A DNA stretch of 64,000 nucleotides, from the NCBI GenBank assembly GCA_964541145.1, contig CAZIOX010000006.1, positions 1,899 through 65,898 of the forward strand, in the 5' to 3' direction. A program made the translations under genes and the position numbers. Each line of letters opens with the position of its first letter. Within the stretch, counting starts at the first letter, position 1. This DNA comes from an uncultured Candidatus Saccharibacteria bacterium (GTDB taxonomy: Bacteria; Patescibacteriota; Saccharimonadia; Saccharimonadales; UBA4665). Below, piece by piece: positions 22,534 through 23,044 of this stretch. The notes under the pieces were generated by a model, which saw nothing but the letters and a program-made list of their open reading frames with translations, ran no database searches and had not been told where the DNA came from.

Positions 22534-22610
22534 GCCACCTTAGCTCAGTTGGCCAGAGCGGCTGTTTTGTAAACAGCGGGTCGTGGGTTCGAATCCCTCA
22601 GGTGGCTCCA
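22534..22610 (+). tRNA. trnT: tRNA-Thr (anticodon UGU), CCA encoded
   Basis: GCCACCTTAGCTCAGTTGGCCAGAGCGGCTGTTTTGTAAACAGCGGGTCGTGGGTTCGAATCCCTCAGGTGGCTCCA. There is one U-U mismatch in the T stem. Confidence 0.9.
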
Positions 22611-22617
22611 TGTACAT

Positions 22618-22703
22618 GCAGGGTTAGTGAAGCGGTCAAACACGACAGACTGTAAATCTGTTGGCTTATGCCTTCGTAGGTTCGAATCCTACACCCTGCA
22701 CCA
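22618..22703 (+). tRNA. trnY: tRNA-Tyr (anticodon GUA), long variable arm, CCA encoded
   Basis: GCAGGGTTAGTGAAGCGGTCAAACACGACAGACTGTAAATCTGTTGGCTTATGCCTTCGTAGGTTCGAATCCTACACCCTGCACCA. Confidence 0.95.
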
Positions 22704-23044
22704 GCATCTTTTTGTCTACGTAGTAGATGAAAAGTTGCTGGAGCGGGCTGGAGGATGAGAACCGTACGGCGGAGCCGAGGTTCGTACAGGTGTGAGCGTG
22801 CAGGAGCTTGCTCCGAAAAGCGAATACCGTGCGAGCGAAGCGAATCCTACACCCTGCACCAGCATCTTTTTGTCTACGTAGTAGATGAAAAGTTGCTGGA
22901 GCGGGCTGGAGGATGAGAACCGTACGGCGGAGCCGAGGTTCGTACAGGTGTGAGCGTGCAGGAGCTTGCTCCGAAAAGCGAATACCGTGCGAGCGAAGCG
23001 AATCCTACACCCTGCACCAGCATCTTTTTGTCTACGTAGTAGAT
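22683..23044. repeat. Perfect tandem repeat, 158-bp unit, about 2.3 copies, beginning inside the T-loop of tRNA-Tyr
   Basis: Units start at 22683, 22841 and 22999 (the last is partial and ends near 23044). Each starts with cgaatcctacaccctgcacca, which is the last 21 nt of tRNA-Tyr. Copies 1 and 2 are identical by eye. Confidence 0.95.

Follow-up and report, generated by a model that had tools for sequence, protein, structure and literature searches.

Why does the 3′ end of a tRNA-Tyr gene recur twice, letter for letter, just downstream of the intact gene? The locus that raises this question lies within a 64,000-nt stretch of DNA from an uncultured Saccharibacterium (the whole of which is referred to here as the window), and it had been singled out in an earlier note, made from the sequence alone, as a perfect 158-bp repeat following tRNA-Tyr. 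The host is a member of the Patescibacteria with a genome of about 1 Mb in which tRNAs are single-copy, and the genome carrying the array (G000) is available as a short-read metagenome-assembled genome (MAG) of ~1.02 Mb in 21 contigs.

Here, we describe the array, the modules related to it in other Saccharimonadales, and the explanations that can be offered for its origin. The 158-bp repeat is a recently doubled, structured trailer module, built like the tyrT/rtT repeats of Escherichia coli; homology with RtT is not demonstrated.

Anatomy of the array behind tRNA-Tyr

Tandem Repeats Finder confirms the repeat, reporting 22683-23044 as one tandem array with a period of 158, 2.3 copies (a figure that comes from one short-read MAG assembly), 100% matches, no indels and a score of 724. 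Such perfect periodicity over 362 nt cannot be chance. By exact string positions the layout is X-Y-X-Y-X, with X of 46 nt and Y of 112 nt (Table 1). The array starts at C56 of tRNA-Tyr, and the last 21 nt of the gene (cgaatcctacaccctgcacca; 22683-22703) form the first part of X and return at 22841-22861 and 22999-23019. The earlier note was thus correct that the duplicated segment runs from the T-loop to CCA and that the third copy breaks off after about 46 nt, and its reading of the perfect identity between copies as the mark of a very recent event also stands.

Table 1. Features of the tRNA-Thr/tRNA-Tyr locus and of the array, in window coordinates.
Feature	Position	Strand	Description	Basis
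tRNA-Thr(TGT)	22534..22610	+	First gene of likely Thr-Tyr transcription unit	ARAGORN; Rfam tRNA, 66.5 bits
tRNA-Tyr(GTA)	22618..22703	+	Intact, CCA encoded	ARAGORN; Rfam tRNA, 64 bits
X copy 1	22683..22728	+	46 nt: tRNA-Tyr nt C56-A76 plus first 25 nt of trailer; direct repeat bracketing the module	Exact strings; Tandem Repeats Finder
Trailer hairpin	22704..22738	+	AU-rich; second copy 22862-22896	Fold
Y copy 1	22729..22840	+	112 nt, non-repeated body of module 1	Exact strings
RtT-aligned stretch	22734..22861	+	Matched end to end by Rfam RtT (RF00391), positions 1-130 of 130, ending at CCA; likewise 22892-23019	15.7 bits, far below gathering score of 45; E 0.69-2.5
a′	22739..22756	+	TGGAGCGGGCTGGAGGAT, degenerate inverted copy of tRNA-Tyr 3′ end; second copy 22897-22914	MFE fold
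H1	22757..22784	+	Hairpin GAGAACCGTACGGCGGAGCCGAGGTTCG, GAACC/GGTTC stem, GNA-type tip; second copy 22915-22942	Pattern search
H2	22784..22832	+	Conserved 49-nt hairpin; second copy 22942-22990	RNAalifold; covariation; model R1
X copy 2	22841..22886	+	Opens with 21 nt (22841-22861) that form the tRNA-like 3′ end of the module, CCA included	Exact strings
Y copy 2	22887..22998	+	Same sequence as Y copy 1	Tandem Repeats Finder; exact strings
X copy 3	22999..23044	+	Divergence into unique downstream flank beyond it	Exact strings

A whole-genome search found no further occurrence of the 158-bp unit in the 1.02 Mb. An Rfam scan of the region returned only tRNA above threshold, with no match to group II intron, ribozyme or riboswitch models, and neither a terminator nor a promoter on the + strand was called from tRNA-Tyr to the end of the array. 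The trailer hairpin carries its U-run on the 5′ side and its A-run on the 3′ side and is therefore not a canonical intrinsic terminator; in most other modules the same slot holds a canonical A-tract/GC-stem/T-tract terminator.

The unit is rich in hairpins, as had been noticed (H1, H2 and the trailer hairpin), and it has a predicted fold of -66 kcal/mol (z -3.98). In the MFE fold 16 positions of the 5′ segment pair with the 3′ copy, such that a′ and the copy of the tRNA 3′ end close the module. H2, with the pattern GTAC-A-GGNNT-GA-GC-GTGCA-GGAG-CTTG-CTCC-GAAAA-GC-GA-ANNCC-GTGC, takes the place at which the copied 3′ third of the tRNA is interrupted in its T-loop.

A patchy family of modules that end in a copy of their own tRNA's 3′ end

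The core of the unit is matched in 25 of 81 relatives, at several loci per genome, and nearly all of these matches lie just 3′ of a tRNA on the same strand. The modules follow tRNA genes directly and always in the tRNA sense orientation, and they share one order from 5′ to 3′: a hairpin or terminator, a′, H1, H2 at the T-loop position, and a direct copy of nt ~59-76 of the module's own tRNA, with discriminator and CCA included. The last 17 nt before CCA are recopied 134-160 nt downstream with 0-3 mismatches for Tyr, Arg-GCG, Asp, Met, Leu-CAA, Val, Pro and Gln, and the same cognate-end rule applies within the array-bearing genome itself to Met-i, Lys, Pro-TGG, Arg-TCG and Phe. An independent check in other families (G307, G326 and G217) finds it again for Ala, Met, Leu-TAG, Arg-TCT, Arg-GCG and Asp, with 0-2 mismatches over 18 nt in each case; in all, at least 13 tRNA species have a module with a cognate end behind them. 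For Arg and Asp, the 3′ strand of H1 also repeats tRNA nt 44-57, a repeat that is degenerate in Met.

A model of the H2 core (R1) matches the window at 22777-22847 and 22935-23005 with 96.4 bits, and it detects the core in 31 of 301 Saccharimonadales genomes, belonging to 29 of 218 genera, at 1-9 copies per genome; no match was found in ~285 genomes sampled outside the order. Scores are near the maximum in other families as well. A search of about 185,000 species genomes finds the exact H1 pattern, which contains one N, solely in 12 Saccharibacteria/Patescibacteria MAGs, and seven of the 11 loci scanned for tRNAs lie just downstream of one, the others being at contig ends or without a nearby tRNA call.

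The family is patchy, being present in about 10% of the genomes of the order. Whether the unit is simply the normal trailer in relatives, as the earlier note had wondered, has a divided answer. It is a member of an order-wide family, but not the standard trailer of tRNA-Tyr: the orthologous site is empty in G004, G025, G023 and G007 and occupied by modules of other types elsewhere, even where tRNA-Tyr itself is identical (it is 100% identical in eight congeners).

Conservation of H2 is conservation of structure. RNAalifold predicts 15 pairs, six of them with double compensatory changes, and 96.6% of the cells in the alignment are paired; the covariation score is 0.419 compared with 0.193 in shuffles (0/500) and at most 0.096 in slid controls. 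The fold is specific to the tRNA-sense strand owing to conserved U.G wobbles, so that H2 shows what is generically expected of a structured non-coding RNA, namely compensatory changes above controls and on one strand only. Its unpaired nucleotides (GA/GA, GUGCA/GAAAA and CUUG) are conserved more than hairpin formation requires. H2 is a new structured RNA motif, absent from Rfam.

Because the whole-module MAFFT alignment (A2) is too poor in its 5′ part for pairs to be counted, the closing helix was evaluated by energy- and fold-based tests. Across modules, the duplex of a′ with the tRNA 3′ end has an energy of -11.3 kcal/mol for cognate and -8.6 kcal/mol for non-cognate combinations (p about 1e-5). 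A closing helix of at least 8 bp is predicted in the MFE of 14 of 18 modules, and the mean number of closing-helix pairs is 10.2, versus 5.9 with shuffled 5′ segments (p 0.002).

Origin of the second unit and competing explanations

We assign a probability of roughly 0.6 to the following reading, taken as a whole: one tRNA-trailer module, a member of the order-wide family, makes up the 158-bp array in two complete copies followed by its terminal repeat; unequal recombination between X repeats, or slippage from one to another, most likely gave rise to the extra unit; and the module would be expressed by read-through as an RNA with a tRNA-like end. Every module is bracketed by direct repeats – the 46-nt X in the window – and unequal homologous recombination or replication slippage between X copies could thus add or delete whole 158-bp units. 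An ancestral X-Y-X would have become X-Y-X-Y-X by one very recent event. The single-unit X-Y-X is the form of the tRNA-Tyr locus in the sister species (G010), is reproduced exactly as in G010 by an independent JGI metagenome contig, and is present also at L012, L027 and the Lys locus of G000. Over long times the H1/H2 cassette may also spread from one tRNA locus to another, and the universally conserved T-loop boxes on either side of it might be where the exchange takes place.

At the RNA level, we infer that read-through from the promoter of the Thr-Tyr tRNA unit carries transcription into the module, and the transcript is predicted to fold as a three-way junction in which the closing helix, formed by a′ and the 3′ copy, presents a tRNA-like ...ACCA end. 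With such an end, tRNA-processing enzymes could release the module RNA. The expressed tRNA-linked repeat RNA that had been listed among the earlier alternatives comes close to the reading favoured here, in which transcription is predicted.

Two further routes to the inverted and direct copies were weighed, namely hairpin-primed (snap-back) copying at the terminator and CRISPR/casposon-like repeat duplication; the terminator loops in young X repeats are identical and not reverse-complemented, which argues against a simple double snap-back. A retro-mechanism in which the tRNA 3′ end serves as an analogue of a primer-binding site was rejected: there is no RVT_1 in the array-bearing genome, and RVT_1 is found in only 14 of 81 relatives.

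The modules could instead be selfish, non-autonomous DNA repeats of a MITE- or REPIN-like kind without RNA function, with hairpins that act as single-stranded or cruciform DNA, a putative enzyme that mobilises them, and tRNA-end copies that represent terminal inverted repeats or long target duplications. Patchiness, together with the many 3′ copies in decay, is less suggestive of a core function than of an element that is dispensable or selfish, and such elements would also account for the presence of up to nine copies in one genome, the fast gain and loss at the Tyr locus, the near-maximal model scores in other families, and the lineage-specific compensatory variant common to all copies within G307 and G326, which points to spread or homogenisation within lineages. 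The strand-specific G.T pairs would suit a single-stranded-DNA mechanism too. The modules further resemble REPINs and MITEs in being small, hairpin-forming, extragenic and multi-copy, and every genome of the genus has RAYT genes; the array-bearing genome encodes five HUH transposases of the RAYT type and shows genome-wide enrichment of GAGCGAAGCG-type motifs. However, the RAYT-like genes are flanked by their own unrelated REP palindromes and some genomes have modules without any Y1 hit (G058, G065 and G067), so that mobilisation by a RAYT/REP system is unsupported. Recent intragenomic spread in the genus was likewise rejected, since copies in the same genome are ~78% identical in the core, no closer than the background, as would not follow from recent bursts. 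Terminal inverted repeats or REP hairpins common to all copies and to the ends or flanks of a transposase gene, short target-site duplications of fixed length (or none at all) and numerous near-identical copies within a genome, as expected of MITEs and REPINs, were all lacking: the modules are few and diverged, strictly tRNA-linked and fixed in the orientation of the tRNA, their arms or ‘terminal repeats’ derive from the local tRNA and change with it from copy to copy, and the duplicated segments vary from 17 to 63 nt, unlike the target duplications of transposases. The constraint on the unpaired nucleotides of H2 is a further difficulty, and we regard a purely selfish repeat as unlikely.

A different objection concerns the second unit alone, which would be an assembly artefact if the organism had a single unit (X-Y-X) and the assembler looped once too often. 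The two units are 100% identical, the source is a short-read MAG in 21 contigs, the sister species and the independent contig have one unit, and runs of N interrupt two other module arrays of the same assembly, at initiator tRNA-Met (C17) and tRNA-Phe (C19); unless these runs reflect masking, tandem modules are a recurrent assembly difficulty in this genome. Nonetheless, the Y-X-Y junction must span the 46-nt X, and k-mers longer than 46 – a value of k that we assume – would provide this path only if it were present in the reads. Tandem doubles that have diverged, and are hence certainly real, are common in relatives (Met x2 in L020, Arg x2 in L006 and L030, and Tyr x2 in G016 and G013). We therefore consider an artefact quite improbable, and it would alter only the copy number and not the nature of the module.

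The first interpretation offered for the locus was that of a tyrosine-integrase scar or satellite at a tRNA attB site. Such a miniature element would be similar to a CIME, a cis-mobilisable element lacking an integrase, and would have been enlarged by tandem accretion through repeated site-specific integration. T-loop crossover sites are classical for tRNA-targeting integrases, and X-Y-X-Y-X with X extending from the T-loop past the tRNA 3′ end is formally equivalent to attL/attR with tandem accretion; attL/attR and CIMEs similarly have such direct repeats, leave the tRNA intact and can occur in tandem. An integrase was sought elsewhere in the genome, and exactly one tyrosine recombinase (PF00589) was found, a conserved Xer-type gene (XerC/XerD/XerA models) that is syntenic in 39 of 41 relatives irrespective of whether modules are present. 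One integrase/attP pair, which would use one or a few attB tRNAs, cannot produce modules at 13 or more tRNA species with their own 3′ ends. The spacing between repeats is steadily about 110-140 nt, which is not the pattern of independent deletion remnants, the one long tRNA-module gap that was examined proved to be an IS insertion rather than an integrase island, and no larger, integrase-bearing version of the module was seen. The array also departs from att elements and CIMEs in having a body of only about 110 nt, an inverted copy of the tRNA end inside the module, and a conserved RNA-type structure. Integrase-mediated origin is thus very improbable, and a T-loop-to-CCA repeat should not always be taken as an integrase scar.

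A last suggestion, that the unit encodes an arginine-rich small peptide like E. coli Tpr (ORF 22755-22916), draws on an ATG inside GGATGAGAACC that occupies the position equivalent to the tpr start in the window (frame MRTVRRSRGS...), L004, L023 and L028, and is rejected because neither start codon nor frame is conserved: the start triplet is ACG, AAT, GCG or ATT in five of nine Saccharibacterial modules, frames shift or hold stops, the period of 158 is not divisible by 3, and GGAGG is just 1 nt from the ATG.

Relation to tRNA-like minihelices and the tyrT repeats

tRNA-like minihelix elements are familiar as processing signals, for example in viral tRNA-like 3′ ends and mascRNA-type elements. 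The modules are minihelix-like in having a helix of acceptor-like and T-stem-like strands that ends in NCCA, which could be recognised by RNase P and 3′-end trimming enzymes. They are unlike minihelices in that the module CCA can pair with an upstream UGG, and about 85 nt (H1 plus H2) stand in for the ‘T-loop’.

Knowledge of the E. coli tyrT repeats goes back to the late 1970s, and rtT has an old link with the stringent response. The system comprises the 178-bp repeats of the tyrT operon, the gene rttR, the Rfam family RF00391 (RtT) and the overlapping tpr ORF. A single tyrT repeat unit gives rise to the rtT RNA, whose mode of action is described as unknown (PMC3318445; bioRxiv 10.1101/2024.07.17.603846); where PMC3318445 cites Bosl and Kersten (1991), rtT is given as a stable RNA released from the tRNA primary transcript.

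In both E. coli and the window, tandem units lie 3′ of tRNA-Tyr on the same strand, without a canonical terminator between tRNA and repeats, and the last copy is fractional (178 bp x3.1 and 158 bp x2.3, respectively). Each unit terminates in the tRNA-Tyr 3′ end, T-loop to CCA, which pairs with an upstream inverted copy of the T-arm/acceptor segment (GGGGAAGGATGAGAAGC against GGAGGATGAGAACC) to form a predicted closing helix. After the inverted copy come, in both, an AGGTTCG hairpin and then, at the T-loop position, an inserted hairpin rich in GC; a GAGCGAAGCG-type motif immediately precedes AATCC...CCA. The central hairpin differs, being H2 with a CUUG loop and GA/GA motifs in the window and GUUGCC-GCAG-GCAAC in E. 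coli.

Sequence comparison does not demonstrate homology with E. coli RtT, and the full-length alignments listed in Table 1 fall short of the RF00391 gathering score. The E. coli units score 133-137 bits with this model, and E. coli alone among 14 control genomes is above the cut-off, whereas a whole-genome search with RF00391 gave no match at E≤10. Comparison of the window with E. coli RtT by nhmmer was not significant in either direction (best E 0.77 and 0.07), nor was local alignment of the non-tRNA interiors without the 3′ copy (z 1.2-3.0; pairwise z 1-3). The shared motifs are explained largely by both systems being built out of tRNA-Tyr pieces.

A broader reading, to which we give little credence at present, is that the modules are genes of an unlisted class of tRNA-cognate RNAs, an ‘RtT superfamily’ extending from Enterobacteria to Patescibacteria, whose members would each mimic, in minihelix-like form, the acceptor/T-arm of their own tRNA, with H2 as an effector hairpin in place of the T-loop and an internal anti-3′-end segment. 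Cut out by the tRNA-processing machinery, such an RNA could sense or titrate the cognate tRNA 3′ end, for example that of uncharged tRNA, at which the stringent-response link may hint; alternatively, it could titrate enzymes or toxins that act on the tRNA 3′ end.

The modules explain why certain ‘partial tRNA genes’ and perfect tandem repeats turn up to confuse the assembly and annotation of MAGs, and they turn an isolated curiosity into a comparative problem. RtT was examined here at the tyrT locus of E. coli; its building plan is now seen in a very distant, genome-reduced lineage, where it serves 13 or more tRNA species, each with a cognate end, and obeys a clear rule – an inverted and then a direct copy of the cognate tRNA 3′ third, with a covarying hairpin at the T-loop position. 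Were the superfamily real, the question of what the tyrT repeats do, now 45 years old, could be tested directly with comparative data from dozens of tRNA species.

The tRNA-Tyr array and its module family

The array downstream of tRNA-Tyr in the window consists of a doubled module whose family is order-wide, tied to tRNA genes and characterized by a copy of the cognate tRNA 3' end and a covarying hairpin. Tandem Repeats Finder identifies a single array at 22683-23044 with a period of 158, 2.3 copies, 100% identity and no indels as assembled, and exact string matching gives the order X-Y-X-Y-X; these results bear out the repeat as the earlier note described it. The 158-bp unit has no second locus in the window's own genome (G000; 1.02 Mb, 21 contigs), and the full 158-nt unit has a fold energy of -66 kcal/mol (z -3.98). 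The sister species (G010) and one independent metagenome contig retain an X-Y-X form, and the extra unit was probably gained in such an ancestor, when its 46-nt X repeats slipped or recombined unequally.

Coordinates of features in the window and of HUH/Y1 genes elsewhere in G000
Feature	Position	Strand	Details
tRNA-Thr(TGT)	22534-22610	+	Rfam tRNA 66.5 bits
tRNA-Tyr(GTA)	22618-22703	+	Rfam tRNA 64 bits
X repeat, 46 nt	22683-22728, 22841-22886, 22999-23044		tRNA nt C56 to A76 + 25 nt trailer
Y segment, 112 nt	22729-22840, 22887-22998		
Five paralogous HUH/Y1 proteins	C11:8032-8259, C1:28847-29071, C11:22990-23214, C3:92952-93182, C4:22213-22437		~206-222 aa

Two other G000 arrays outside the window, after the initiator tRNA-Met (contig C17:8755-9200) and a tRNA-Phe (C19:2600-3193), are broken by runs of ~100 Ns falling exactly within the second unit, either scaffold gaps or masked stretches; such arrays are thus difficult to assemble, unless the runs reflect masking. 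On contig C19 (9,977 bp) there is an additional tRNA-Phe(GAA) and an additional tRNA-Gly(CCC), unlike those of C3 and C18; the contig may belong to another strain or have been binned here as a contaminant.

The 137-nt unit as a query matches 25 of 81 relatives, frequently at several loci per genome and nearly always directly 3' of a same-strand tRNA gene. All well-preserved modules carry a copy of their own tRNA's final 17 nt ahead of CCA, with 0-3 mismatches, 134-160 nt past the genuine 3' terminus, as is the case for Tyr, Arg-GCG, Asp, Met, Leu-CAA, Val, Pro and Gln. For an independent test we turned to three genomes from other families, none of which had contributed to forming the idea; there, modules follow tRNA-Ala, Met, Leu-TAG, Arg-TCT, Arg-GCG and Asp, and the copies have 0-2 mismatches over 18 nt. 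A 17-mer with one mismatch or fewer is expected ~2e-6 times per 600 nt. In G000, 3'-end copies follow seven of the 42 tRNAs (Tyr, initiator Met, Lys, Pro-TGG, Arg-TCG, Phe and, weakly, Ser-TGA).

One module is an 'orphan' because a 328-aa IS-transposase-like ORF with an N-terminal zinc-finger (CRVC...CPVC) separates it from tRNA-Arg(GCG) (locus L013:375-1361, relative G023). At L009:1240-1500 (G003:C1 ~596,100-596,420) the module is preceded by a broken tRNA-Asp, in which 5 nt of the anticodon loop (CTGTC) are duplicated and everything past the T-loop is missing. In module 2 behind tRNA-Asp at L017 (G070), a 29-nt perfect hairpin splits the 3'-end copy (CATCCGGTC, then bracketed TGCCCTCCCGAAGCTTTAGCGAAGGAGGG, then TCGGGCCCGCCA), nested within it as an insertion where T-stem and acceptor meet.

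Module anatomy and structural constraint

The first part behind the tRNA is a hairpin, mostly a canonical terminator (A-tract, GC-stem, T-tract) with the stem lengthened by ACCA...TGGT; in G000 (22704-22738) and G010 (L004 trailer) it is reversed, with a U-run 5' and an A-run 3' of the stem, and receives no terminator call. The second part, a', repeats the tRNA 3' end in inverted, degenerate form, and is more complementary to the cognate end than to non-cognate ends, at -11.3 vs -8.6 kcal/mol (Wilcoxon p ~1e-5, which overstates independence because many loci are orthologous). Hairpin H1 follows. One form is the near-invariant GAGAACCGTACGGCGNAGCCGAGGTTCG, an exact pattern present in only 12 Saccharibacteria/Patescibacteria MAGs among ~185,000 species genomes and lying directly 3' of a tRNA wherever the fetched stretch contains one; in the other (Asp, Arg, degenerate Met) the 3' strand is tRNA nt 44-57 and the 5' strand its complement. 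Hairpin H2 (49 nt) is inserted between T-loop nt 57 and 58/59, followed by a direct copy of nt ~59-76 with CCA. Modules lacking H2 also occur; in these, a small hairpin and then GCAGTC stand between the inverted copy and a direct copy that begins at T54. The 5' segment forms at least 8 closing pairs with the 3' copy in the MFE structures of 14/18 modules, with a mean of 10.2 vs 5.9 for shuffled 5' segments (p 0.002).

H2 is structurally constrained on the tRNA-sense strand. RNAalifold, applied to 20 aligned cores that are all non-identical and stem from different genomes and tRNAs, predicts 15 pairs, six with double compensatory changes, and 96.6% of cells are paired; the covariation score is 0.419 vs 0.193 for shuffled alignments (0/500 reach it), and slid partners give at most 0.096. 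The apical stem with its CUUG loop occurs as GGAG/CUCC, GGUG/CACC, GAAA/UUUC, GAAG/CUUC, GAUG/CAUC, GCUG/CAGC and others, and unpaired residues (tandem GA/GA, GUGCA/GAAAA) are also conserved. Conserved U.G pairs would become C.A mismatches on the opposite strand, which assigns the fold to the tRNA-sense strand.

Because no terminator or promoter was called inside the window module, it would presumably be transcribed by read-through from the tRNA and, if active at all, would act as an RNA with a tRNA-like end. Speculatively, a module might acquire both copies, inverted and direct, of another tRNA's end if the H1/H2 cassette were exchanged between pre-existing palindromes of the tRNA 3' third, through the conserved T-loop boxes on either side of it.

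Distribution, dynamics and candidate mobilising enzymes

Covariance model R1, built from the H2 core, detects 1-9 copies each in 31/301 sampled genomes of the order (29/218 genera, ~20 families), and gives no match in those sampled elsewhere in the phylum. The array is not a conserved tRNA-Tyr trailer, the reading that the earlier note set against integration, since congener sites are empty or differently filled. The tRNA-Tyr is 100% identical in nine species of the genus (G000 included) and their downstream sites vary. The site is empty in G004 and G025, and also in G023 and G007 (tRNA-Tyr 97-98% identical); it holds one H2-less module in G015 and G017, two in G016 and G013, an H2-less plus an H2 module in G018, one window-type unit in G010 and 2.3 in G000, and a different H2 subtype in G012 (tRNA-Tyr 86% identical). 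Three of these relatives (G017, G015, G023; L050, L051, L059) have a short ORF for a zinc-ribbon protein (M.CPKC.K.MRKVRWEI.NNFKVG...Y.C) 3' of tRNA-Tyr and ahead of tRNA-Thr(GGT); G000 has none at the corresponding position.

Within the genus, cores of different tRNAs in the same genome are 78.1% alike vs a background of 78.3%, and the figure rises slightly, to 81.5% (p 0.05), for cores of the same tRNA in different genomes; recent bursts are therefore absent. Every copy in G307 and G326 has the lineage-specific compensatory variant GAAC...GUGA replacing GAGC...GCGA, indicating that the cassette spread or was homogenised within lineages over long times.

The proposal that the repeat is a tyrosine-integrase attB scar is rejected: the sole PF00589 match in G000 is a recombinase of 302 aa and Xer type (XerC/XerD/XerA models), which 39/41 relatives conserve in a syntenic position. 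Several genomes of the genus have the Xer gene at a distance of 4-5 kb from their tRNA-Asp module, and in G003 (C1:591286-591812) it is split in two, ~5 kb from the broken tRNA-Asp and module.

RVT_1 has no match in G000. Y1_Tnp matches five ~210-aa genes, which are not supported as movers of the modules, as the perfect palindromes around each gene are particular to it and bear no relation to the modules, and some module-bearing genomes carry no such gene. The PF00589, RVT_1 and Y1_Tnp searches yield no candidate mobilising enzyme. The five proteins have YYH..., NHxHL and YIHLNP motifs, with REP-associated tyrosine transposases as best NCBIfam match, below cut-off. Their perfect palindromes lie on both sides (e.g. 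CTCAAGGACTGTCCTTGAG, GGGAGGACTGTCCTCCC, GACCTATCGGGTCGTACCCGATAGGT), and they may drive palindromic insert families of G000. Such genes number 1-7 in every genome of the genus. Another hairpin-rich repeat family outside the window (C2:~83004, C4:~96825, C5:~34465) has the GAGCGAAGCGA motif in common (…GAGCGAAGCGAT gaattcaccgcaagaggggcgagcccctcttgcg…), and GAGCGAAGCG occurs 11 times in G000 vs ~2 expected.

Comparison with the E. coli tyrT operon

The MG1655 locus comprises tyrT, tyrV, rttR and tpr, with 178 bp repeats in 3.1 copies, and rttR is the product of one tyrT operon repeat unit (PMC3318445). The Rfam RtT model scores 133-137 bits on the E. coli units and 15.7 bits on the window units, against a gathering score of 45, and a genome-scale search with it reports nothing; an RF00391 assignment is therefore rejected. 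Sequence profiles of E. coli RtT and the window modules are not significant in either direction. With the model below its gathering score and the profiles non-significant, the relation is one of architecture, with homology neither shown nor excluded. A tpr-like ORF is rejected, as none is conserved among the Saccharibacterial modules.

On the tRNA strand, the E. coli unit consists, from first to last, of the trailer, GGGGAAGGATGAGAAGC (acceptor and T-arm in inverted copy), AAGGTTCGA, a GC-rich hairpin, a GAGCGAAGCG-type motif and AATCCTTCCCCCACCACCA. The inverted segment pairs with the 3' copy as a closing helix in the RtT consensus structure, the GC-rich hairpin occupies the T-loop position, and a TC-to-GA change is common to GGGGAAGGATGAGAAGC and GGAGGATGAGAACC of the window. 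The RtT model covers both window units over its full length (1-130 of 130), ending exactly at CCA.
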